Below are positions 3,261 to 56,122 of a DNA stretch of 57,819 nucleotides, one piece after another; within the stretch, counting starts at the first letter, position 1, and every line of letters begins with the position of its first letter. The stretch comes from Chiloscyllium plagiosum (Eukaryota): assembly GCF_004010195.1 (NCBI RefSeq), contig NC_057749.1, forward strand, positions 16,706,564-16,764,382, written 5' to 3'. Below the pieces are notes generated by a model, which was given only the letters and a program-made list of their open reading frames with translations, did not search any database and was not told the DNA's origin. The translations under genes were made by a program, and so were the position numbers.

Positions 3261-3389
3261 ATTCCTGAAGAAGGGCTTATGCCCGAAACGTCGATTCTCC
3301 TCTTCCCTGGATGCTGCCTGACCTGCTGCGCTTTTCCAGCAACACATTTCCAGCTCTGATCTCCAGCATCTGCAGACCTCACTTTCTCC
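3261..3389 (+). mobile_element. Solo Penelope-like pLTR with intact minimal hammerhead core
   Basis: attcCTGAAGAagggcttatgcccGAAACGTCgatt followed by the pLTR tail ending actttctcc. Flanked by TTAATG duplication (3255-3260, 3390-3395). Confidence 0.8.
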
Positions 3390-20266: not shown

Positions 20267-20734
20267 ATGTTTAACATGTGACCAGAGATCGACTTAATCA
20301 TTCTTCTCTTCTATTTCAGTCCCTAATTCAAGGTATACAGAAGCTCTACACAAATATGACCTCTTGGATTGCGTTTTGCTTACTTGTCAGTTTTAACTTA
20401 TGTAGTTTTAGGGAAAAAAAGCACAATTTTCAAAGATGTTTCAACAACTAAACTCCAAGCCAAGAATCTCAATACTTTACCTCATAATTTTTACTATTAT
20501 AACCATAATTCTCAGAATTCAAATTTAATATGAAACATCGCAGCTTTAAGCCAGTTTAGTTTACAACTCAAAACATGTCTAACAAATCATAAATTATTTA
20601 TGGTTGAAAAGTGTGGCACTGGAAAAGCACAGCAGGTCAAGCAGCCTCGGAAGAGCAGAAGAATCAATGGTTTGAGCATAAGCCCTTTATCAGGAATGTG
20701 GAGGGGAAGGGGCTGAGGGATTAATAGTCAGGTT

Positions 20735-23500
20735 TTTTTATTCAGTTGTGGGTCATGGATGTCGCTGGCCAGCCAACACTAGTATCCCACACTTATTTGC
20801 TCGAGAAGGCTCTTGAATCACTGCAGTCCACTTGCTGTGGGTTGACCCACAATGCCGGTAGGGAGGGAATTCCAGGATTTTGACCCAAAGACTGTGAAGG
20901 AACAGCAGTATATTTCCAGTCAGGGCAGTGAATGGCTTGGAGGGGTACGTGCAAGTGGTGGTGTTCCAAGTGCTTGCTGCCCTTGTCCTAGATGGAAGTA
21001 GTCATGGGTTTGGAAATGTTGTCTAAGGAGCTTTGGTGCATTTCTGAAATGCATCTTGAGCATTGGTGGTGGAGAGATTGAATGTATGTCTATGTGGTGT
21101 CAATCAAGCAGGTTGCTTTGTCCTGGATGGTGTCGAGCTTCTTGAGTGTTGTTAGAGCTGCCCCCATCCAGGCAAGTATTCCATCACACTCCTGACTTGT
21201 TCCTTGGAGATGGTGGATAGACTTTAGGGTGTCAGGTGTTAAGTTACTCGCCACAGTATCCCTAGTCTCTGACTTGCTCTTGTAGCCACTGTGTTATGTG
21301 GCATGTCCAGTGGAGTTTCTGGTCAACAGCAACCCCAACGGTAACCCACTGTTGGAATTCATTGATGGTAATACTGTTGAATATCAAGGGATGGTGGTTA
21401 GCGTGTTTCTTATTGGTGACGGTCATTGTCTGGCATTGAAGTGGCACAAATGTTACTTGCCTCTTGTTGGCCCAAGCCTGGATATTGTCCAGATCTTGTT
21501 GCATTTGAGCTCGGTCTGCTTCAGTACCTGAGAAGTCACAAATGGTGCTGAACACTGTGCAATCATTGAACATCTCTACTGCTGATCTTACGACGGAGGG
21601 AAGGTCATTGATGAAGCAGCTGAAGATTGTTGGGCCTAGGACACTGCCCTGAGGGAATCCTGCAGAGATGTTCTGGAGCTCAGATGACTGACCCTCCACA
21701 ACCACAACCATCTTCCTTTGTACCAGGTACGACTAACCAGCAGAGCGTTTGCCCCAATACCCATTCCAGTTTTCAATGGTTCAATGCCATATGCGGTCAA
21801 ATGCCGCGTTGTTGTGAAAGGCTGTCACTCTCACCTTCCCTCTGGAATTCTTGCTCTTTTGTCCATATTTGAACCAAGGCTGTCATGAGATCAGGAGCTG
21901 AGTGACTCTGGTGAAATCCAAACTGGACGTCACTGAGCACGTGCTGCTTGATAGCACTGTTAATGACCCCTTCCATCACTTAATTGATAATGGAGAGTAG
22001 ACAGATTGGGCGATAATTGGCCAGGCTCGATTTGTCCTGCTTTTGTGTACAGGACATACCTGGGCAATTTTCCTTTGTCGGGTAGATGTTGGGCAACTGT
22101 ACTGGAAGAGCTTGGCTCGGGGAGCAGCAAGTTCGGGAGCACTATTGCTGGAACGTTATCAGGGCCCATTGCCTTTGCAGTATCCAATGCCTCCTGCTAT
22201 TTCTTGATATTATGTGGAGTGAATCAAATTGGTTGGAGGCCAGTATCTGTGATGCTGGGGACCACTGGAAGAGCCAGAGATGGATCATCCACTTGGAACG
22301 TCTGACTGAAGATTGTTGTGAATTCATCAGCCTTAGCTTTTGCACTGATGTGCTGAGCTCCTCCATTGTTGAGGATGGGGATTTTTATGGATATTTGTTG
22401 TTTAATTGTCTACCGCCTTTCACAACTGGATGTGGAAGGACCGCAGAGCTTAGATCTGATCCAATGGTTGTGGGATTGCTTTGCTCTGTCTATCACTTGC
22501 TGTTTATGCCATTTGGCACACAAAATTGGTAGCCTCATCAGGTTTACACCTCATTTTTAGGTATGCCTGATGCGTCTCTTGAACTCTCCAACGAACATGG
22601 GTTGATCCTCTGGCTTGATGGCAATGGCTGAGTGGGGGATATGCCAGGCCATGAGGTTGCAGGTTGTGCTGGAATACAGTTCTGCTGCTGTTGATGGCCC
22701 AAAGAGCCTCATGAATGCCCAATCTTGAGCTACTAGATTGGGACAGACTTCAAACCATTTAGGTAAAAACAATGACTGCAAATGCTGGAAACCAGATATC
22801 TGGATTAGTGGTCCTGGAAGAGCACAGCAGTTCAGGCAGCATCCGAGGAGCAGTAAAATCGACGTTTTGGGCAAAAGCCCTTCTTCAGGAATAAAGGCAG
22901 AGAACCTGAAGTGTGGAGAGATAAGCAAGAGGAGGGTAGGGATGGGGAGAAAGTAGCATAGAGTACAATAGGTGAGTGGGGGAGGGGATGAAGGTGATAG
23001 GTTGGGGGATGGGGGAAGAGTGGAGTGGATAGGTGGAAAGGAAGATAGGCAGGTAGGACAAGTCATGGGGACAGTGCTGAGCTGGAGGTTTGGAACTAGG
23101 GCGAGGTGGGGGAAGGGGAAATGAGGAAACTGTTGAAGTCTACATTGATGCCCTGGGGTTGAAGTGTTCTGAGGCAGAAGATGAGGCGTTCTTCCTCTAG
23201 GCGTCTGGTGGTGAGGGAGCGGCTGTGAAGGAGGCCCAGGATCTCCATGTCCTCGGCAGAGTGGGAGGGGGATTTAGCACAGTGATAGTGCAACACAACA
23301 CAATGGAGGTTATTCTCAATGTGAAGGCGGGACTTTGTCTCCACAAGGACAGTGTGATGGTCATTTCTACCTAAACTGTCATGGACAGATGCTTCTGCAG
23401 CCAGCAGATAAGTAAGGATGAAGTCAAGTATGTTTTTTCCCTCTTGTAGATTCCCTCAACACCTGCCCCCCCCCCCAGGGGGGCCTGCCACAGACCTAGT
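20735..23500 (-). mobile_element. L2/CR1-group LINE (decayed RT), interrupted by a PLE
   Basis: [20 protein letters not shown]...QQDLDNIQAWA; DTAKAMGPDNVPAIVL; MEGVINSAIKQH.LSD.QFGF.Q.HSAPDL.TALVQ.WTKE. Confidence 0.85.
22763..23271 (-). mobile_element. Penelope-like element 3' fragment (GIY-YIG C-terminus + pLTR)
   Basis: SHSAEDMEILGLLH..SLTTRRLEEERLIFCLRTLQPQGINVDF. ATTTAG duplication at 22757-22762 and 23272-23277. Confidence 0.85.
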
Positions 23501-24004
23501 GTAGTGGAGACGGGGGGTGGGGGGGGGGGAGGTAGCTGGGAAAGTGATAGTGGATGCAGGTGGGGGGTAATAATGATAGGTCAGTGGGGAGGATGGAGTA
23601 GATAGGTAGGAAGGAAAATGGACAGGTTGGTCAGGTCAAGGGGGCGGTGCAGAGTTGGTGGTTTGGATCTGCAATGTGGTGGTAGGGAGGGGAGATTTGG
23701 AAACTGGTGAAGTTAATGTTGATGCCGTGTCATTGAAGGGTACCAAGGTGGAAGATAAGGCACTTTTCCTCCAGTCATCAAGTGGCTTGAATGTGGCGGT
23801 AGAGGCAGCTCAGGACTTCTATAAACTTGTCAGTGTGGAATGGGGGAGTTGAAGTGGTTGGCCACAGGCCAGTGGGGTCATTTGCTTAGAGTGTGTCCTA
23901 GAAACGCTCTGTGATGTAGTGCCCTGTCTCCCCAATGTAGAGGAGACCACATCAAGAGCAACAGACACAGTAGATGTGCAGGAAAATCTCTGCCAGATGT
24001 GAAA

Positions 24005-24330
24005 AGATTAGATTAGACTAGATTAGATTCCTTACAGTGTGGAAACAGGCTCTTCGGCCCAACAAGCCCACACCGACCCTCTGAAGAGTAACCCACCTAG
24101 ACCCATTTCCCTCTGACGAATGCACCTAACACAATGGGCAATTTAGCATGGCCAATTCACCTGACATGCATATCTTTGGACTATGGGAGGAAACCCGAAG
24201 CACCTGGAGGAAACCCACGCAAACACAGCGAGAATGTCTGTATGGAGTTTGCAGTCGCCCGAGGCTGGAATCGAACCTGGATCCCAGGTGCTGTGAGGCA
24301 GCAGTGCTAACCACAGTCACCGTGACACCC
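24005..24330 (-). mobile_element. HE1-type V-SINE
   Basis: tRNA-derived head (GTGGTTAGCACTGCTGCCTCACAGC...GGTTCGATTCC), V-domain GGGTTTCCTCC.GGTGCT.CGG, HER1-like tail and (ATCTA)n end. Confidence 0.9.
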
Positions 24331-27300
24331 CTGACTGTCTTGCACTATAACATATTTCTTAATCAAAATTGCATGGGTGTGGAGGGTGGGTTGATGGGGA
24401 GCATGGACCTAACAAGGGAGTCCCACACCTCCGCCCATGAACTCCAGCCCTCCAACCGCAACAAAGAGAGAAGCCCTCCCCAATCCTCACCTTCCATCCC
24501 ACTAATCTCCGGTTACAGCACATTATCCTCTGCCTTTTCCGCCACTTACAATCCGACCCCACCAATGATAAATTTATCTCCCCTCCTGTGTTCCACGGAA
24601 ATCATTCTCTCCACAACTCCTTCATTAGGTCCATACCTTTCACCAACCCACCGTCCATACTTGGCACCTTCTGGCTGAGACTTTCCTGCACATCCATCCA
24701 CCCACCTGATCTATTGTGTCCATTGCTCTTGATGTGGACTGCTCTACATTGGAGAAACAGGAAGCCACCTCAGTGTTACAGTGAACGTATCTGGGACACA
24801 CGCACCAAACAACCCCACCACCTTGTGACCGGCCACTTCAACGCCCCCCCACTCCCATTCCCCCAAGAACGTGAAAGTCCTGGGCCTCCATCGCCATATC
24901 CAAGCCACCCGACAAATGGAGGAAGAATGCCTCATCTTCCAATTGGGATCCTTCAACCACACGACATCAACATCGACTTCATCAGTTTCCTCATCTCCCC
25001 TCCCCCAGCTCATCCCAGATCCAACTCTTCAACTCTGCTCTGCCTTCTTGACCTTTCTATCTACCTTCCCAACTATCCACACTCCACATCGATCTATTAC
25101 TTGCATCCATCTATGGCCTTCCCAGCAGCCCGACACCCACCCCCTTCCCCCTCCACATTCGTGATGAAGGGCTTGTACCCGATACGTTGACTCTCCTACT
25201 GCTCGGGTGCAGTTTGAACTGCTCTGCTTTTCCGGTGCCACACTTTTCAACTCTGACTCTCCAACATCTGCAGTCCTCACTTTCTTCATAAATTATTCGG
25301 AGTTGAACAAACATAATCCAACAGAGAAAGGCCGACATTGTTTGCAAAAGCTGAAAATTCAGAGAGATTACAGGAAGAGAACTGACCTGCTGGAAGGTGT
25401 ACTAATTAATTTTAATATCTTTGTTAGTGAAACTTTGGCAGTTGGGATGCCTAGCTAGCAGAAAGTTAGCCTTTCATAAAGGGAGTTTCAATGCTAGGAA
25501 AATAACTTCTTTGGGTAGCTGAATAGCAAGAGCAAAGAGATAAGCTGAAGGTGCTCCAGACTCCTGAAATATCCAACATTTAAATAACACCAACTTAACA
25601 GGCAGTGCTGTCTTTAAAACTTATTTAACTACAGGATTCAGCATAGCTAATTTCACAGATTATTTGCTGTTGTTTTGGCTTTGAATCAACATAAACAGCA
25701 TTAAATATAATATAAAGAGCACGAGAGTTTCAAATGCTTTCAAAACACTTTAGATATAATTTTAAATGTGTAATTTTTTTGGGTTAGGTGATAAACACCA
25801 AGTTGGATGTTTGCAACATGAAAATATTGTATCGCATGCAAGCACCTCCAAACAAAGTTACTGCAATATCTATGGATACTCATTTATCAACAGAGAGAAC
25901 AGTGGGACGTTCCAATGAATCTAACTTTCTGACGCTGGGATGAGTACTTGTGCACAAATTTAATTTTACTGGTTAGGAGTGGTGTGCGGCAGACAGGATA
26001 AATATCATCTGCTAAATCTTATAACTAAAGCAGATCAAAGACAAATATCCAAAATACATTTATTGAACTAATGTGGAATAAACCAATAAAAATATAAATT
26101 TTCAAACTCCTTATGGACAGCACAAACTACAGATATAGGCTGATCATACAATGCATAACTGAGCAGTGAAGGATTTTTAAATTTCACAATCATGCTGACA
26201 TTTGCTTTTCCAAACATTTCTTTGCTCAAAGATATGATTTTTAAAACTGTCACATTTTTTGTGAAACCTTGCTGTGCATGCAAGAGTGGCTATATTTGAC
26301 TACTATATGTAGTCAGAAACATTAATTAAAACAACAGTGGGTAACTAAGTTTTCCCAAATACCTCTAGGAATTTCTCTTGTACAGCAAAGGTTCTTTAAC
26401 AAAAAAAATGTAACAATAATACTGGATTTCGACTGCAATTCTAACTAAACTGCCATACTGTACTCATGTCAATTGTCTCTAGCCTTCCTTTCCCCTGAAG
26501 CTGCAATTATGTTACCACCTAGTCACTAGACTTCACCTCTGCTCCACATTCACTGGTGCTCAGCATTATCATCGACTTTGGTCCATCAGCAAAGTTTCTC
26601 AATTTAATAAATAAATTTACAGGTGTTGAATAACGTACAGCTGCCATATCCTTTTATAGTTCACAGGGAATGTGCACTTCAACTATTTGTCTAACAATTC
26701 TTTCAATTGAAAGAAGGATTTCATGCAAGCACAAGGCCTTTTGATGAAAATAATTCACCCAGCACATGCAACGGTTAACTTCGTCTCAATGGGTTATTTG
26801 AAAACTGATAGCTTTGGAAAACTTATTGCATTTTCCCCAATTTACTTCATTTTTTTTAAAGTACACTTTATGTGACAGCAAATTAGTGAAATATCTTTGC
26901 TGAAGGTCATCAATAGATTTATTGATGAATCCTAAAGTACTTTGGGGTTAGGTATGTGAACTCTGGTGAATACCTCTAAACTGCTAGAAAAGCTGTTGAA
27001 TTAGACTGCTCTTATTAAAAGCATACCAAGATCCAGAATAAAAACACACACAAGGGTTTAGGGATCATTCTTTGTGCAAAATACAAACTTGATAAAATTC
27101 CTCTAAGGAGGTTGTAAATTTTTTACGACATCAACATATTGGCACAACTGAGAATCACAAACTGAATGACAAAGGTTCAGTAAAGCAAATATTTAATCAA
27201 AAAACAAACCATAAATTGAAATAGACTTGCACGGATGATCATAAGACAACTATAAAAAAGCTTATGCTGATAATTCTGCATTCATCTAGTTTTTTTTAAA

Positions 27301-27730: not shown

Positions 27731-29166
27731 TAATCTTTTATTTCCAAATGCTGTTAAATTAAGGTGTATCAAAGAGAATATAACTTGCTGTTTATATAAA
27801 AGCGTAAAGCTAGAAATACAATTCAAAGAACGTTAGCTACTGTGCAATCCTTTCCCCACTTTGATATAATCCTAACAGGGAAAAAAAACAATGCTCTGTT
27901 ACACTCAGAAGATCAATACATCTAGCTCAACTACTTCTCGGTTTCTACATTTTAAAAAAGATAATTTATTCAAAGACCATCTTCTGTGGTGCTGCTTATA
28001 GTTTGTCAGAAGGCACAATTATTTATTGGTTTTGCACAGCAATGTATGCAATGAAAGTCTCCTTGCAGAGATCGTGATGTAACTAAGTTTGTCCTAATGA
28101 ATGACCAACTGTGTAGAGTCCACCATGCAGAGTAGAATATCTGTAGCAGGAGAGAAACATACAAGAATGGGATAAGGTCTGATCCTCGAATACATAGGCA
28201 ATTCTACAGGGTGGCTCCTACATAGAAACATGTGGCAAATAATGCAGAAAAATCTGGGTGACTGAAGAAATTGAGAGTTTGATTAAGAAAAAGGAGGAAG
28301 CATATAGATAGGATAGATCGAGTGAATCCCTAGAAGAGTATAAAGGAAGTAGGAGTATACTTAAGAGGGAAATCAGGTGGACAAAAAGGGGACATGAGAT
28401 AGCTTTGGCAAATAGAATTAAGGAGAATCCTTAATTTTTACAAATATATTAAGGACAAAAGGGTAACTAGGGAGAGAATAGGGCCCCTCAAAGATCAGCA
28501 AGGCAGCCTTTGTGTGGAGCCACAGAAAATGGGGAGATACTAAATGAATATTTTGCATCAGTATTTACTGTGGACAAGGATATGGAAGATATAGACTGTA
28601 GGGAAATAGATGGTGACATCTTGCAAAATGCCCAGATTACAGAGGAGGAAGTGCTGGATGCCTTGAAACGGGTAAATGTGGATAAATCCCCAGGACCTGA
28701 TCAAGTGTACCCTAGAACTCTGTGGAAAGCTAGAGAAGTGATTGTTGGGCCTCTTGCTGAGATATTTGTATCATTGACAGTCACAGCTGAGGTGCTGGAA
28801 AACTGGAGGTTGGCTAATTTGGTGCCACTCCTTAAGAAGGGAATTAAGGACAAGCTAGAGAACGATAGACCAGTGAGCCTGACGTCGGTGGTTGGCAAGT
28901 TGTTGGAGGGAATCCTGAGGGACAGGATGTATATGTATTTGGAAAAGCAAGGACTGATTAGGGATAGTCAACATGGCTTTGTGTTCGGGAAATCATGTCT
29001 CACAAACTTGATTGAGTTTTTTGAGGAAGAAAGAGGATTGATGAGGACAGAGCAATAGATGTGATCTATATGGACTTCAGGAAGGCATTTGACAAGGTTC
29101 CCCATGGGAGACTGATTACCAAGGTTACTCTCACTGAATACAGGGAGAACTAACCATTTGGATATA

Positions 29167-29930
29167 GGATTAGAATGGTGCTAAAAAAGTACAGCAGTTC
29201 AGGCAGCATCAGAGCAGGAAAATCGACGTTTTGGGCAAAAGCCCTTCATGAGAAATAGAGGCAGAGTGCCTGCAGGGTGGAGAGTTAAAAGAGAAGAGGG
29301 TGGGGGATAATATCATTTATTGTATCCGTTGCTCCCGATGCGGTCTCCTCGACATTGGGGAGACTGAATGCCTCCGAGCAGAGTGCTTTAGGGAACATCT
29401 CTGGGACACCCAAACCAATCAACCACACCGCCTTTCGACTCCCCCTCCCACTCTGCTGAGGACATGGAGGTCCTGGGTGTCCTTCACCACCGCTCCCTCA
29501 CCACCTGACACCTGGAGGAAGAACGCCTCATCTTCCGCCTCGGAACACTTCAACCCCAGGGCATCAATGTGGACTTCACCAGTTTCCTCATTTCCCCTTC
29601 CCCCACCTCACCCCAGTTCCAAACTTCCTACTCAGCACCGTCCCCATGACTTGCCTATCTTCCTTTCCACCCATCCACTCCACCCTCCTCTCTTTACCTA
29701 TCACCTCCATCCCCACCCCCATTCATCTATTGTACTCTATGCTACTTTCTCCCCACCCGCCTCTCATTTATCTCTCCACCCTGCAGGCACTCTGCCTCTA
29801 TTCCTGATGAAGGACTTTTGCCTGAAATGTCGATTTTCCTGCTCCTCAGATGCTGCCTGAACTGCTGTGCTTTTCCAGCACCACTCTAACCCAGAATCTA
29901 GTTTCCAGCATCTGCAGTCCTTGTTTTTAC
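29167..29930 (+). mobile_element. Penelope-like element: inverted pLTR + GIY-YIG endonuclease + pLTR
   Basis: NIIYCIRCSRCGLL.IGET...FREHL is a GIY-YIG motif. Inverted pLTR at 29167-~29306, sense pLTR to 29930. CCATTTGGATA duplication at 29154-29164 and 29931-29941. Confidence 0.9.
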
Positions 29931-30558
29931 CCATTTGGATACAGAACTGGCTCAAAGGTAGAAGACAGAGGGTGGTGGTGGAGGGTTGTTTTTTTTAGAC
30001 TGGAAGCTTGCGACCAGTGGAGTGCCACAAGGATCGGTGCTGGGTCCTCTACTTTTTGTCATTTACATAAATGATTTGGATGCGAGCATAAGAGGTACAG
30101 TTAGTAAGATTGCAGATGACACCAAAATTGGAGGTGTAGTGGACAGCAAAGAAGGTTACCTCAGATTATAACAGGATTTTGACCAGATGGGCCAATGGAC
30201 TGAGAAGTGGCAGATGGATTTTAATTCAGATAAATGCGAGGTGCTGCATTTTGGGAAAGCAAATCTTAGCAGGACTTATACACTTAATGGTAAGGTCCTA
30301 GGGAGTGTTGCTGAACAAAGAGACCTTGGAGTGCAGGTTCATAGCTCCTTGAAAGTGGAGTCGCAGGTAGATAGGATAGTGAAGGCGGCGTTTGGTATGC
30401 TTTCCTTTATTGGTCAGAGTATTGAGTACAGGAGCTGGGAGGTTGCGGCTGTACAGGACATTGGTTAGGCCACTGTTGGAATATTGCGTGCAATACTGGT
30501 CTAATTCCTATCGGAAAGATGTTGTGAAACTTGAAAGAGTTCAGAAAAGACTTACAAG

Positions 30559-30883
30559 ACTTAGCTCCATGTCCTCAGCAGAGTGGGAGAGGGAGTTGAA
30601 ATGTTGGGCCACAAGGCGGTGTCGTTGATTGGTTTGGGTGTCCCAGAGATGTTCCCTAAAGCACTCTGCTCGGAGGCATTCAGTCTCCCCAATGTAGAGG
30701 AGACTGCATCGGGAGCAACAGATACAGTAAATGATATTATCCCCCACCCTCTTCTCTTTTAACTCTCCACCCTGCAGGCATTCTGCCTCCATTTCTGATG
30801 AAGGGCTTTTGCCCGAAACGTCGATTCTCCTGTTCCTTGGATGCTGCTGGACCTGCTGTGCTTTTCCAGCAACACATTTTCAG
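30559..30883. mobile_element. Penelope-derived insertion: antisense GIY-YIG piece + sense pLTR with intact hammerhead core
   Basis: Minus strand reads NIIYCICCSRCSLLYIGETECLRAECFREHL. CTGATGAagggcttttgcccGAAACGTC at 30795-30822. CTTACAAG duplication at 30551-30558 and 30884-30891. Confidence 0.85.
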
Positions 30884-32254
30884 CTTACAAGGATGTTGCC
30901 AGGGTTGGAGGATGTGAGCTGGAAGGAGAGGCTGAACAGGCTGGGATGTTTTCCCTGGAGCGTCGGAGGCTGAGGGGTGACCTTAAAGAGGTTTTACAAA
31001 ATTATCAGGGGCATGGATAGGATAAATAGACAAAGTCTTTTCCCTGGGGTCGGGGAGTCCTGAACTAGAGGGCACAGGTTTAGGGTGAGAGGGGAAAGAT
31101 ATAAAAGAGACCTAAGGGGCAACTTTTCACACAGAGGGTGGTACATGTATGGAATGAGCTGCCAAAGGATGTGGAGGCTGGTACAATTGTAACATTTAAG
31201 AGGCATTTGGATAGGAAATATGACTAGGAAGGGTTTGGAGGAATATGGGCCAGGTGCTGGCAGGTGGGATTGGGTTGGGATATCTGATTGGCAAGGACAG
31301 GTTGGACCGAAGGGTCTGTTTCCATGTTGTACATCTCTATGACTCTACAATCATTTAGCTCATCCTCCTCAATAAGATCAATAACAAATGTGAGAGTAAA
31401 TTCAGTTAATAGCAAAGTAACCTTTAAACATTTGTCCTTATTTGTATGATACATACTATCAAGTCAGCTACTTAATGAGAATACAGTCTACTTTAGTTTA
31501 AATTAACACTGAAGTCTTATGAACTTTATTCATATTGAAAGATAATTTACAGTTACAGTTCCATCAAAACAAACCATATAAAGAGATAGTCACTTTGATT
31601 TCTTTAAACTAAAAGAAGCTTGTGAAATTCAGACTAAATATCCACCTGAATAGGAACAACCATCAGCAATATAGCTCATTTTTAGATTCAACCTGTCAAA
31701 CTGAAGTTATCACTGGAGAATATTTTATTGAATTGAACAGTAAAAGTAAAATGCTGGTGGTGTGTGCCTGGCCGTGGCAATGGCTTAACAATTTAAGGTG
31801 ATCCCTCAATAGTATGAAATAAAACATGTACAGCACAACATTAACGCATACTTTCTCATGACTTCATGACGTTTCTCATTTCACACGGAATCAATGTGAA
31901 TGATTTGTTTAGGAAGTGAACTAAAAAACCATTCATTTGACATTTCCACACATAACTGTTATACCATGCAAATTAGCAAAGTTAAATTATTTCCTTGGTG
32001 TTTGAAGATTTATCATCTCGAAGTAAAACGCAAAGAATTCTACTCATGTGCTGAACTTTAGCTAACACCCACCACTCATCCCACCTCACCTAATCTCAGA
32101 AAATTAGGTTAAGCCCTAAAAATGGATGTCACATATGTTTTGACAACTCAAAATTAGTTCTTCAAGACAGTCAAGGACTAGAGGGAACTTGGAAGTTTAT
32201 GGTCAAATGTTTACTTTCATTAGGGGAAAAAAACCTTCTGAAAAATCCATTCTG

Positions 32255-44240: not shown

Positions 44241-44606
44241 TAGATTAGATTAGATTAGTTACAGTGTGGAAACAGGCCCTTCAGCCCAACAAGTCCACNN
44301 NNNNNNNNNNNNNNNNNNNNNNNNNNNNNNNNNNNNNNNNNNNNNNNNNNNNNNNNNNNNNNNNNNNNNNNNNNNNNNNNNNNNNNNNNNNNNNNNNNNN
44401 NNNNNNNNNNNNNNNNNNNNNNNNNNNNNNNNNNNNNNNNNNNNNNNNNNNNNNNNNNNNNNNNNNNNNNNNNNNNNNNNNNNNNNNNNNNNNNNNNNGG
44501 GGAGAATGTGCAAACTCCACACAGAGAGTCGCCTGAGGCGGGAATTGAACCCGGGTCTCTGGCGCTGTGAAGCAGCAGTGCTAACCACTGTGCTACCGTG
44601 CCGCCC
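44241..44606 (-). mobile_element. HE1-type V-SINE inserted in CR1, spanning an assembly gap
   Basis: Reverse complement begins GGGCGGCACGGTAGCACAGTGGTTAGCACTGCTGC. (ATCTA)n tail at 44241-44258. Confidence 0.9.
44299..44498. other. Assembly gap (200 N)
   Basis: Run of exactly 200 N. Confidence 1.
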
Positions 44607-52149: not shown

Positions 52150-52685
52150 AACCGCAACGGAACGGTTCAGAGAACACCTCTGGGACACCCGGACCAACCA
52201 ATCCAACCACCTCGTGGCTCAACACTTCAACTCCCCCTCCCACTCCACCAAGGACATGCAGGCCAGACCATAGCAACACGCCGGCTGGAGGAAGAGCACC
52301 TCATCTTCCGCCTAGGAACCCTCCAACCACAAGGGATGAACTCAGATTTCTCCAGTTTCGTCATTTCCCCTCTCCCCACCTTGTCTCAGTCAAATCCCTC
52401 GAACTCAGCACCACCTTCCTAACCTGCAATCTTCTTCCTGACCTCTCCGCCCCCACCCCACTCCGGCCTATCACCTCACCTTGACCTCCTTCCACCTATT
52501 GCATTTCCAACGCCCCTCCCCCCTACTTTTTATCTTAGCCTGCTGGGCACACTTTCCTCATTCCTGAAGGGCTTATGCCCGAAACGTCGATTCTCCTGTT
52601 CCTTGGATGCTGCCTGACCTGCTGCGCTTTTCCAGCAACACATTTTCAGCTCTGATCTCCAGCATCTGCAGTCCTCATTTTCTCC
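52150..52685 (+). mobile_element. Penelope-like element 3' fragment (GIY-YIG C-terminus + pLTR)
   Basis: ERFREHLWDTRTNQ...; TIATRRLEEEHLIFRLGTLQPQGMNSDFSSF. pLTR tail nearly identical to 3261-3389, but the hammerhead core has a 3-nt deletion (ctga-agggc). Confidence 0.9.
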
Positions 52686-52851: not shown

Positions 52852-55640
52852 CTCACTGAATCTGTACATGAACCACCTCAATAACAACAAAGTGAGTTTT
52901 ATTTTTGGAAGTCAGGCTGTAACTTTTGTGATTTACGATGTATGGAGCCAGGATGCAGCCATCTCACTGGATGCAGAATAGAATCAAGGAGCTAAATAGT
53001 CTCCTCTTGTTCCTAATACAAAATAAAAGTCATGTCATTCTAAGTGATTGCCATATTCTACGAAAAGGTCAAATGTAGCCTTGGGCAAAATTAAACTGGT
53101 GAACATTTCATTGAGGCTGCTCTAGAAAATTACTCAATAGCATGAGAAAGCTATTGAAAATCAGAGTTCAGAATTACCACATTAGACCAGTAACCACTTT
53201 GTCTGTAACAATATCTCTCTTTTAACCCCAAAGCAGTAAGTTTATTTTACAAGTATGACTAACGTGAGTTTCATACACTTAAAAATTACTGTAGGAACAG
53301 TTCTAAATGTATTCAAAAATCTATTTCACTCAAGCAACTTGGTTATCAAACAAAAATGTCAGTGTAATTTGATGCTCAGCTCCTGTTGCAAAATACAACC
53401 TGTGATACAAAGAATCCAGTGTCACCAGAGACATTTTCAGAACTTTGAGTTCCCATTACACTTCCACCGCACCCCCTCCCCACCTCCAAACATACACCCA
53501 CCACAAGCATTTGGTGCCCTCTTTAATTGCAGATTTCCTGACTCAAGCAGATCTCCAGACAGGCAACACCAGCTAATGGAGATAAAAATGAGCAGCACAG
53601 AAAGATTAAAAGTCACCATAAATAACACTACGCCAAACTCCATATGAGATGATTAAAAGAGCAACATACATTTAGTTTAGCTTGTCATCTGAACCTCCCA
53701 TTTGCTTTAGTGACATTATAATGGTTATATTCACTGCTTTCCAAAGTATAGAGACACAAGCTCACTCTCAATCTGAAGCTCAAATTGTAAAAGACTACCT
53801 TGCTTATTGTTTTAATCACATTGTACATCTGTGAATTCTGAGTCCCAGCCCCTCATCAATGTCCTGTGAGCAATTGTGAATAACACGTTAAAAGAGCAGG
53901 AATACTATGCTGAGCCTCTTCAAACAATTGGCAATAGTTAGGAACATGATTTACAGAAACAAAAAAACACTACAGCACAAATAAGCCAGGCTAGTGTATC
54001 ATATGTGGACAGTCAGTTAGCTCACTCAAAACTGGATATTTACAAGTAGTATTAAATTTGAGAGATAATGGTTAAATCTACTTCCCAGTTTCCATATATC
54101 AATTAGTTTAGAAAAATTGTGGTCTGAGATTTTTTTAAATGGAAATAAAATTTGCACTTGTAGACAGTGCAAATCATTACTTTTAGTTAAGGATATTAGT
54201 ATTTAGTTACCTAAATACATACTTTGGATCATATACATCAAATATTAAACCTTGAATTACTAAAACTTCTATCACTACATGTGACGCACTTTCAGACATC
54301 AAAACAAAATGTAAGTCTAATTGCAACATAATGAAAATTGGTCGACATCTAAAGATCTGAAATTCACATACAGTGATATGAAGCTCCTTGTCCTATCTTG
54401 GAAGCATTATTCTATTGAGCTCCAAGAGTCCTAGTTTTCTCCTTACTTGTTCCTGCCTTGTAATACAAGTGGTAGCACACAGCAAAATTGCATTACTTTA
54501 TTACAACACAAATACCCCCATTCCAGTTTGTGGAGAGAGACCCAAGTAAGCAACAAGTAAAATCTATTCAAACTGTAGACTTTTGAATACAAAACTGAAT
54601 CTCCACTATTTTCCACCCGCTCAACTCTACTGAACAGTCCGTGCTTTAGTTTCTGTAGCATTAAAAATTGAGTATACAAATAATAAATGTGGGTTGTATT
54701 TAAGCAGAGAGATGTTTTCATTTCTCCTAAGTAATTATAAGAATCAGGAGATGAAAAATGTTGGACAAGAGTACACATACAGTGGGAACATACTCTGGTT
54801 TTGGTTATATAATGGAACTACACTACTTAGGAAATACCTGTAAGACAGTTATGTAAAATAGAAATTAGAGCACAATGACTCAATGATAAACCCTTCAGAT
54901 TGCATGAGTCTCTTGTCCACAGCCTCTCTATGTCGTGAATCCCTGGCAATGTTGTTGTAGATGAGAGAGAGAGATGTAACTGATAATCAGGCATGAGTAG
55001 TTAACTGAATAACACGTTATCAGAAAAACAAATTGGGTGAGACTAAAAATATTCATACAAAGTTATTGCAATACAGAATGCAGGACAAGTGACTACTTGA
55101 AGCAAAATCAGTTTCCTTGAGGCTATAAATTTATCAATTAGCCCATCATTCCTGTCGGATCTCTGAAGACAAATCACCTTTGCCCTTAGATCTTAGAAAT
55201 GTCTAATTGAATCCCTTTTTAAATTTACAGCAGATTCTGTAAGGAGTACATTCAAAATACAGGTAAACAATAGGAAGAAAAACAAACTCTAATGGGAAGA
55301 GCTGAAATTTCGGAGTTTGATCTTAAACCAAAAGTTTCGCCGGAACAAAACAAAGTGACCAACCTTCTGTGAACAGCTCATGCATCTTCCTACTGATTAA
55401 AATGTGAATCATCACAATATCGTCACCACAAATGACAAAGGGTTATTTCTTTAAAAGTCATTTAAACGTCCTGAGTTTTGAAATAAAGTTGCCAGGGATG
55501 CCTTTCTTTTTAAAATAAAAACAGGACGGGACGGAAAAGTTACTGTGAATTAACTCATTCGTTCGTAACTTATAAACAAAACGAGGCTCGCTTTTGGATG
55601 TGGTGGAGAGGGTGTAAGTACAGAGATGCAGTTTGCTCAC

Positions 55641-55811
55641 CTGTCCCAGGTTGATGAAGCCGTGCTCCCTGGCCACCCTGGAGGCCTCCTGCTGCCCGCC
55701 GGGGATCTGCACCGCCCAGCTGTTGGTGTAAACTTTCGGCGGGGTCGGGGAAGCAGAGCACAGCGCGATGAGGGTCCAGGACGAGAGGACGGCCTTCAGC
55801 CCCCACTCCAT
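55641..55811 (-). CDS. FURIN: First coding exon of a furin-like proprotein convertase (PCSK/kexin family): signal peptide + N-terminal part of the I9 propeptide
   Basis: Translates to MEWGLKAVLSSWTLIALCSASPTPPKVYTNSWAVQIPGGQQEASRVAREHGFINLGQ (57 aa), resembling furin KVFTNTWAVRIPGG...VARKHGFLNLGQ. ATG has a strong Kozak context (GGGATGG). It ends at a phase-0 donor CAG|GTGAGC (intron starts at 55640), the intron position conserved after GQ in furin/PCSK5/PCSK6. Family assignment is firm; paralogue is best-guess furin (PCSK5/6 have TNHWAV). The ORF-track extension to 55458 is intronic read-through. Confidence 0.85.
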
Positions 55812-56122
55812 CCCCGAGGCCCGGGTTCACAGTCCAGGGGTCAGGCGGAGGGTGGGGGGGGGGGGGGGGGATTGTCGCTCTCACACTCCGGCCAGTGCCT
55901 TCTCTTCGAGGGGAGTCCTCCCAGGAGCTCAGTCTCCTCCGGGGGTGGTTTGCACACACACACACTCCTCCTCTCTCCCCCTTCCCTCACTCAGTCCCGG
56001 AGGGAGGGGAGACCGGCCCCCGGTGACGGGATGGGGGTTAAGTCGAATGGCCGCTCACACCGTCTCCTTCGCCGGTCCTCCTCCCGCTCCTGACGGACCG
56101 GTCACTCGGTGGAGAGGGATGT
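55812..56122 (-). other. Probable 5' UTR part of the first coding exon
   Basis: GC-rich 311 nt with no upstream ATG on the minus strand. Begins at a candidate acceptor ...gctcatttaaaagaaaatattttctctcAG|AC (AG at 56124-56123, branch-like CTCAT about 25 nt upstream). This fits the furin layout of non-coding exon 1 followed by the ATG-containing exon 2. Confidence 0.55.

Follow-up and report, generated by a model that had tools for sequence, protein, structure and literature searches.

The window analysed here, a 57,819-nucleotide stretch of the shark Chiloscyllium plagiosum (C40:16706564-16764382; genome size 3.56 Gb), holds an old copy of a long interspersed nuclear element (LINE) that was entered by two Penelope elements, elemA (29166-29930) and elemB (30559-30883). 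We denote the Penelope family of elemA as family A, and that of the window copies at 3261 and 52166-52675 as family B. Our analysis suggests that elemB is a chimeric Penelope insertion that arose in one event, through a target-primed start on family-B RNA and one homology-guided switch to a template derived from elemA. We assign this reading a probability of about 0.78, a value that refers to the event as a whole and not to its RNA branch (see below). The analysis established that elemB descends from elemA, that its tail stems from family B and stops at the canonical end, that one exchange joined the two parts, that the target duplication is genuine, and that chimeras of this kind are rare.

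Two Penelope insertions in one LINE copy

The host LINE was recognised by its reverse transcriptase (RT) domain (Pfam RVT_1 matches at 28702-29055 and 29971-30159). When each Penelope insertion was removed in silico together with one copy of its target site duplication (TSD), the LINE frame ran on unbroken, and its translation reads GELTIWIQNWL across the elemA site and VQKRLTRMLPGLED across the elemB site. As removal restores the LINE frame, elemA and elemB are both true insertions into a pre-existing LINE. Thus, the proposal of a sequence-only reading of the window, that elemB is an insertion with its own 8-bp TSD, proved correct, with CTTACAAG present on both sides.

elemA carries an 11-bp TSD (CCATTTGGATA; for coordinates of the features see Table 1). 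Its body starts with a 5'-truncated Penelope open reading frame (ORF), the translation of which (from 29306, …YCIRCSRCG..IGET…) appears GIY-YIG-like by eye; the decayed 151-aa frame matched 0 families in Pfam. In an alignment of 28 related copies, the family ORF extends upstream of the position equivalent to 29306. Since normal copies run on at this point, the elemA junction, at which an inverted pseudo-long terminal repeat (pLTR) meets the truncated ORF, represents a real break. The left arm of elemA contains a hammerhead core on the minus strand (~29225-29252), in which two core substitutions are now present.

Penelope insertions typically comprise an inverted 5'-truncated copy beside the element and a tail of 30-40 bp at one end only (PMC8557442). 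The optional tail is explained by two internal sites, 30-40 nt apart, at which the Penelope protein starts reverse transcription (PMC11167929). In elemA, the tail is found on the right arm, while the left arm ends at the tail-less position adjoining the TSD. The shared end position of the two arms had been taken as a private feature, a notion that did not hold, as it is the normal tail-less end of the family and is also used by 10 of 29 family-A copies. The canonical end of the left arm directly beside the TSD indicates that the junction was made at this locus. With its 5' truncation, inverted 5' copy, one-sided optional tail and TSD, elemA represents a double-primed insertion of the ordinary Penelope type and is older than elemB; family A is likewise the older and family B the younger of the two families. 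The outer 55 nt of its left arm (29167-29221) are ~10% diverged from the family majority, owing to six substitutions, mostly C-to-T or G-to-A, and a 3-bp deletion, compared to ~5% for the right arm.

elemB pairs with the left part of elemA in inverted orientation over two blocks, i.e., 29212-29434 with 30613-30835 (223 nt, 95%) and 29433-29469 with 30565-30601 (37 nt, 95%). Thus, the earlier description of elemB as an inverted copy of ~29220-29470 stands for these blocks; the first 6 nt (30559-30564) are filler and have to be excepted. One determinant of descent is the inversion junction, which recurs in elemB at about 30735-30741. A genome-wide search for the 40 nt around it, suggested by the sequence-only reading and allowing for up to three mismatches, yielded two matches, elemA and elemB. 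The family-A copies L003 and L025 also have an inverted pLTR beside a truncated ORF, and their junctions fall within ~20 nt of the same ORF position, although at other breakpoints. As inverted junctions thus recur with differing breakpoints, the identical junction in elemA and elemB indicates descent.

Rare sequence variants point in the same direction. elemB and the left arm of elemA have four pLTR variants in common, which are absent from the right arm of elemA and occur in 0 to 4 of 29 family copies each; elemB therefore follows the left arm and not the right pLTR, in agreement with the sequence-only reading. Within the ORF part, six derived substitutions are common to both elements, two of them being very rare (0 and 1 of 28 family copies). 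elemA lacks 13 bp near 29434 that elemB and the 28 aligned family copies carry, and since these were kept in elemB and lost from elemA, elemB preserves the older state of its source. Private substitutions in the ORF part number five in elemB and two in elemA, and private changes overall seven and four, in each case with the 13-bp deletion of elemA in addition. Judging from these 7 + 4 changes, the elemB copy is old enough for a divergence of ~4.6%. The aligned sequences thus demonstrate that elemB derives from the left part of elemA as an inverted partial copy.

Two further explanations of this likeness had to be weighed. The first is that elemB is an independent twin-primed insertion that resembles elemA by coincidence or through later gene conversion, or else that elemA was derived from elemB. 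In L1 twin priming, an inverted upstream segment is followed by a direct 3' segment inside one TSD, and elemB shows precisely this classic layout; moreover, L003 and L025 illustrate that inverted junctions recur close to the same ORF position. elemB differs from a twin-primed copy, however, in that its two segments stem from different families and its junction was inherited from elemA and not created de novo during its own insertion, the 40 nt being identical to elemA and unique in the genome. Nucleotide-identical breakpoints together with shared rare variants would be unexpected for independent origins, gene conversion cannot add non-homologous sequence inside a TSD, and a derivation of elemA from elemB needs two switches and leaves the canonical family-A arm end of elemA unexplained. 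We therefore regard this group of scenarios as very improbable. Gene conversion of a pre-existing insertion, or replacement of the elemB tail, was rejected, as homology is present on one side only.

The second is an assembly artefact, in which a pile of reads was duplicated or joined wrongly. Assemblies are known to suffer from Penelope foldbacks (PMC8557442), and a gap of 200 N lies 13 kb away (44299-44498). The two copies differ, however, by 11 substitutions, a 13-bp indel and their entire tails; the TSDs of elemB are clean, and its removal restores the LINE frame. On these internal grounds an assembly error is unlikely, and we grant an artefact of the read pile only a very slight chance.

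The family-B tail and the exchange interval

The 3' end of elemB differs in origin from the remainder. Its last 61 nt (30823-30883) are 95-100% identical to the 42 other genomic matches listed, mostly 97-98% with one at 100% (40 of 791 candidates scored), and 95% identical to the window copy at 52565-52649. The same terminal base (…TTTTCAG) is found in about half of 29 family-B copies. We compared elemB to both families at their diagnostic sites on each side of 30822, as had been suggested. Of the 32 sites that precede 30810, 29 carry the A state, two are private and one is B, whereas from 30827 on all nine substitution sites and all four indel columns carry the B state; the family-B majority there was drawn from just five copies but is consistent with the 100 that were listed. 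This comparison demonstrates a single clean exchange within 30810-30826. The postulated switch of subfamily is thus borne out with respect to the family-B tail, and its position can be placed to this interval but not to the cleavage bond.

The interval lies within a hammerhead core, with CTGATGA at 30795-30801 and GTC at 30820-30822, for which cleavage is predicted at 30822|30823. The predicted bond is inside the interval but is indistinguishable from the rest of the 17 nt that are identical between the families. This block is the second-longest stretch of identity between A and B, the longest (19 nt) being located ~40 nt downstream. A homology-guided switch would be expected in one of these two blocks, as they are the longest stretches that A and B share. 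The motifs of the minimal hammerhead core (CUGANGA, helix II, GAAA and the cleavage triplet) were found in the right arm of elemA, in elemB and in the alignments of both families. When 28000-32000 was scanned against Rfam at E<=1, the sole match was a chance one to a microRNA; that no hammerhead was reported is expected for motifs without helix III (PMC4209133).

We then examined how frequent such a combination is genome-wide. An A-type upstream part with a B-type tail gave two exact pattern matches, elemB and a locus termed L093, compared to 364 for the pure A/A and 5,729 for the pure B/B form; the reverse combination, B upstream and A tail, gave 0. Furthermore, the best 29 family-A pLTRs have an A tail in all cases. 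elemB thus is, by these patterns, a rare chimera and not the member of a subfamily. An ordinary non-autonomous family with many dispersed copies of the same junction and chimeric tail is refuted within this assembly, since the junction pattern is confined to the two elements at this locus; its probability is negligible. Family B itself is highly abundant, and its hammerhead core reads CTGAAGA, not CTGATGA (L064-L092).

L093 (G000:C27:22278353-22278466, minus strand), the only A/B chimera besides elemB, has the form of a foldback enclosed by a single 15-bp TSD (13 of 15 positions matching). The left arm consists of family-A sequence throughout and has the tail. In the right arm, the 19-nt block of identity that follows the hammerhead marks the transition from A to B, and this arm stops where tail-less family-B copies end. 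Seemingly, RNAs of both families took part in this one insertion. Short foldback insertions of ~160-245 nt are also frequent in family B itself, where they make up at least 17 of the 29 copies sampled, the inverted left arm being tail-less and the right arm usually tailed. This frequency indicates that, close to the hammerhead, the growing end often quits its RNA and is extended further on DNA.

Second template and hammerhead

The event that we propose would have started with a family-B ribonucleoprotein cutting the LINE target, and reverse transcription of the family-B RNA would have begun at the normal tail-less internal start. After ~60 nt, in the 17-nt A/B block of the hammerhead core, the growing DNA end would have quit its template and re-paired with an elemA-derived strand 1.1 kb distant. 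Approximately 260 nt would then have been copied from this strand, from the left-arm pLTR across the private inversion junction into the antisense ORF, before the end was joined across the break with the 6-nt filler, leaving the 8-bp TSD. We infer that the exchange itself was a homology-guided template switch during insertion.

With respect to the second template, we tentatively lean, at somewhat less than even odds, towards a minus-sense RNA, either host intron pre-mRNA or an antisense element transcript, with nearby DNA slightly behind. If a single cDNA was primed at the 3' end of elemB, the template would have the sense of the elemA minus strand, which is also the sense of the host pre-mRNA. 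The host is a gene for a furin-like convertase, of which a pro-domain exon lies in the window (Table 1) and a Peptidase_S8 exon on the same strand at C40:16688022-16688120, 18.4 kb past the low end of the window (29.4 bits, above the cut-off). Both exons are on the minus strand and flank the locus, so the insertions are intronic and the sense strand of the gene is minus. The sequence-only reading had named host pre-mRNA as the template; its strand and the intronic site are confirmed by these exons, but nearby DNA would be an equally good template. The fit of the strand is, for one locus, a 50:50 coincidence.

Several other sources fit equally well. One would be an antisense transcript from the right pLTR of elemA; bidirectional pLTR promoters have been proposed (PMC3846280). 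Another would be elemA DNA, to which the growing end could gain access through strand invasion or a switch mediated by microhomology. Lastly, in a two-primer reading, a plus-sense template would be copied from the left side of the break and the product would anneal to the family-B cDNA via the 17 nt. Both DNA strands are cut and extended by a Penelope protein in purified form (PMC11167929), and with priming on both strands the two-primer reading implies the opposite template strand.

The DNA-templated variant deserves closer consideration. Here, the free 3' end of the family-B cDNA would pair with the left-arm DNA of elemA on the same or the sister chromatid, by synthesis-dependent strand annealing or a microhomology-mediated switch, ~260 nt would be copied, and end joining would follow. 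Cis-biased repair predicts such proximity (1.1 kb in a genome of 3.56 Gb), template switches at forks or during repair typically give an inverted orientation, and the target-echoing 6-nt filler and short TSD resemble end-joining repair. Moreover, the family-B foldbacks show that the growing end is routinely extended on a DNA strand. A perfect homology of 17 nt flanked by ~80% similarity is, however, short for duplex strand invasion, the enzyme on site is an RNA-templated polymerase, and direct evidence favours neither template. We consider a DNA template possible, with odds slightly below those for RNA. Distance, filler and short TSD together favour a proximity-driven process with an end-joining finish, but they do not decide between RNA and DNA. 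An ADAR-type A-to-G excess was not seen among the seven private changes of elemB (0 of 2 in the would-be double-stranded part and 1 of 5 in the ORF part), numbers that are uninformative.

Some observations weigh against the proposed event. The ORF part of elemB is nearly as close to the best family copies (94%) as to elemA; as it is barely closer to elemA than to the family, the descent rests on the junction and the rare variants. The 8-bp TSD of elemB is shorter than all family-B TSDs measured (19 of 27 copies with exact repeats, 9-16 bp, median 14), and such an unusually short duplication points to an atypical resolution step and possibly a non-canonical break. The sequence holds no signature that would distinguish RNA from DNA as the second template. 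elemB represents a single event, for which no orthologous empty site was seen. Finally, reads of four runs (X1, X2, X6 and X17) at the locus are dominated by LINE and Penelope repeats and gave no junction-bridging contig; a 75-nt contig of X6 covers 29264-29335 with just 30 letters on one side of the junction, and apparent read joints that skip elemA or elemB belong to other LINE copies.

The sequence-only reading had placed the jump at the hammerhead site itself. In this hammerhead-cleavage version, both RNAs would be cut, and the RT would run off the cleaved donor at G+1 and jump onto the …GUC 3' end of the intron RNA, so that the exchange would fall exactly at 30822|30823. In its favour, the predicted cleavage bond is inside the exchange interval, an intact core (CTGATGA...GAAAC...GTC) was kept in elemB and has since been lost from the elemA arm, and the sense strand of the host gene is the strand required. 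Minimal Penelope hammerheads are furthermore thought to act as dimers of two motifs, which could bring two RNAs together, although their self-cleavage in vitro is low (PMC4209133). A window of 17 identical nt cannot, however, single out the cleavage bond, and L093 switched ~40 nt downstream. In addition, insertion in vitro was unchanged with hammerhead mutants, and RNA-seq revealed no reads terminating at the cleavage site (PMC11167929).

The distribution of breaks in family B genome-wide likewise shows no peak at the cleavage bond among the four successive bonds sampled. We counted family-B copies that match the downstream anchor exactly but carry a transversion in the base just before it, and subtracted those in which the next two or three upstream bases were intact. 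For bond -2|-1, 157 copies in total and 64 with intact upstream bases left a remainder of 93; the cleavage bond, -1|+1, gave 256, 101 and 155, bond +1|+2 gave 151, 76 and 75, and bond +2|+3 gave 246, 72 and 174. A ~2-fold excess at the cleavage bond, apparent from the first three bonds, was dropped, since +2|+3 is equally high and 6 of 20 '-1|+1' cases inspected are not breaks but intact copies with nearby substitutions. The other 14 are true discontinuities, comprising 5' truncations, foldback joints, one deletion and one tandem. Break counts between adjacent bonds near the hammerhead thus vary ~2-fold (75 to 174), and the break positions may be governed by microhomology or by palindromic sequence (ACGT, TCGA, helix II).

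A hammerhead-dependent jump is therefore not supported, and we consider the cleavage version unlikely. Slightly less probable still is a more elaborate form, in which the family-B ribonucleoprotein and nascent host intron RNA would assemble a heterodimeric minimal hammerhead, both RNAs would be cleaved and the RT would jump end-to-end onto the cleaved intron RNA. If true, intron sequence would have been written back 1.1 kb away, and ribozyme-mediated RNA recombination would feed local retro-duplication of host transcripts.

Known systems and the host locus

The anatomy of elemA and of at least 17 of the 29 family-B copies is that of standard Penelope insertions, and it is at the tail-less start that elemB terminates on its 3' side and that the left arm of elemA has its outer end. 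elemB differs in its 5' portion, which consists of its neighbour's sequence, including the neighbour's private junction, and not of its own family's. Template switching by LINE RTs is known to generate chimeric retrocopies, such as U6/L1 fusions and other bipartite or tripartite copies. elemB has the layout of such a template-switch chimera, in that two templates are fused in one orientation, the 3' terminus is that of the mobilising element, and one TSD surrounds the whole. It differs in that the enzyme is a Penelope RT, the 5' partner comes from 1.1 kb away and is not an abundant nuclear RNA, the exchange took place in 17 nt of homology, and a DNA template is possible.

In Adineta vaga, Penelope-mediated capture of foreign sequence beside pLTRs has been described, flanked by TSDs with 8 bp reported, and the authors propose that templates may be antisense or unspliced and that self-priming and jumps between templates take place (PMC3846280). 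Like these cases, elemB carries non-element sequence in a TSD-flanked insertion of Penelope type with an 8-bp TSD. There, however, whole intron-containing genes between pLTRs were moved far, whereas elemB holds a 260-nt piece of a neighbouring Penelope copy with the tail of another family and remained local. A limited literature search returned no description of a local inter-family Penelope chimera, and the template-jump and self-priming proposals that it did return are those in PMC3846280. The event is real and rare; while template-switch chimeras are known, its local character, the use of an older Penelope copy as second template and the involvement of two families set it apart.

To our knowledge, little is known about the movement of Penelope elements in vivo. 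The locus offers a natural product with a readable start site, switch window, second template and end-joining scar, and it lends in vivo support from a shark to the tailed and tail-less start sites seen in vitro with a lizard element. It further shows that switches between families are very rare (2 versus ~6,100 pure pattern matches), and that a switch, once it occurs, can draw on a template located close by. Should there be further captures of this local kind, any preference for one strand with respect to host transcription would bear on whether Penelope enzymes copy nascent host RNA, which touches the long-standing puzzle of intron-retaining Penelope retrocopies.

Table 1 Coordinates of the two Penelope insertions, their parts and neighbouring features in the window
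Feature	Position	Strand	Basis
elemA TSD, left copy, 11 bp, CCATTTGGATA	29155..29165	.	Sequence and LINE frame; right copy 29931-29941
elemA left arm, inverted family-A pLTR	29167..29305	-	Inverted-repeat pairing with right pLTR and alignments
elemA private inversion junction, inverted pLTR meets 5'-truncated ORF	29303..29309	.	Family copies and 40-nt pattern search
elemA body, 3' part of decayed Penelope ORF (GIY-YIG-like, frameshifted) and 3' untranslated region	29306..29750	+	Translation, 82-90% matches to 28 family copies
elemA right pLTR, family A	29751..29930	+	Hammerhead core ~29804-29831; optional tail of ~38 nt 29893-29930
elemB TSD, left copy, 8 bp, CTTACAAG	30551..30558	.	Sequence and LINE frame; right copy 30884-30891
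Filler ACTTAG, 6 nt, elemB 5' junction	30559..30564	.	Matches neither elemA nor family; partly echoes adjacent target
elemB segment from elemA ORF part (antisense to ORF)	30565..30738	-	Inverted repeat and alignment
elemB segment from elemA left arm (family-A pLTR, sense)	30739..30809	+	Diagnostic sites, rare shared variants
Exchange interval, 17-nt block of A/B identity	30810..30826	+	Last A-diagnostic site 30809, first B-diagnostic site 30827
Family-B tail of elemB	30827..30883	+	Ends …TTTTCAG, the canonical tail-less RT start of family B
Family-B Penelope copy	52166..52675	+	Window comparison; shorter copy at 3261-3379
Old LINE copy, RT-bearing, host of both Penelope insertions	28702..31500	+	Pfam RVT_1 and frame continuity
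Open frame with host exon (signal peptide and S8 pro-domain, furin-like convertase)	55461..55826	-	Pfam PF16470, E 2.3e-10

The pro-domain and catalytic-domain exons of the furin-like proprotein convertase, both on the minus strand, lie >74 kb apart, and nearly the whole window corresponds to one or more very large introns. The assembly gap mentioned above lies within it. Fragments of related Penelope families cluster at 20605-25277 and 988-1041, for example at 22768-23272 (minus strand; 85% to elemA), 23574-23976, 24709-25087 and 25156-25277. The intron thus represents a dense graveyard of Penelope and LINE copies.

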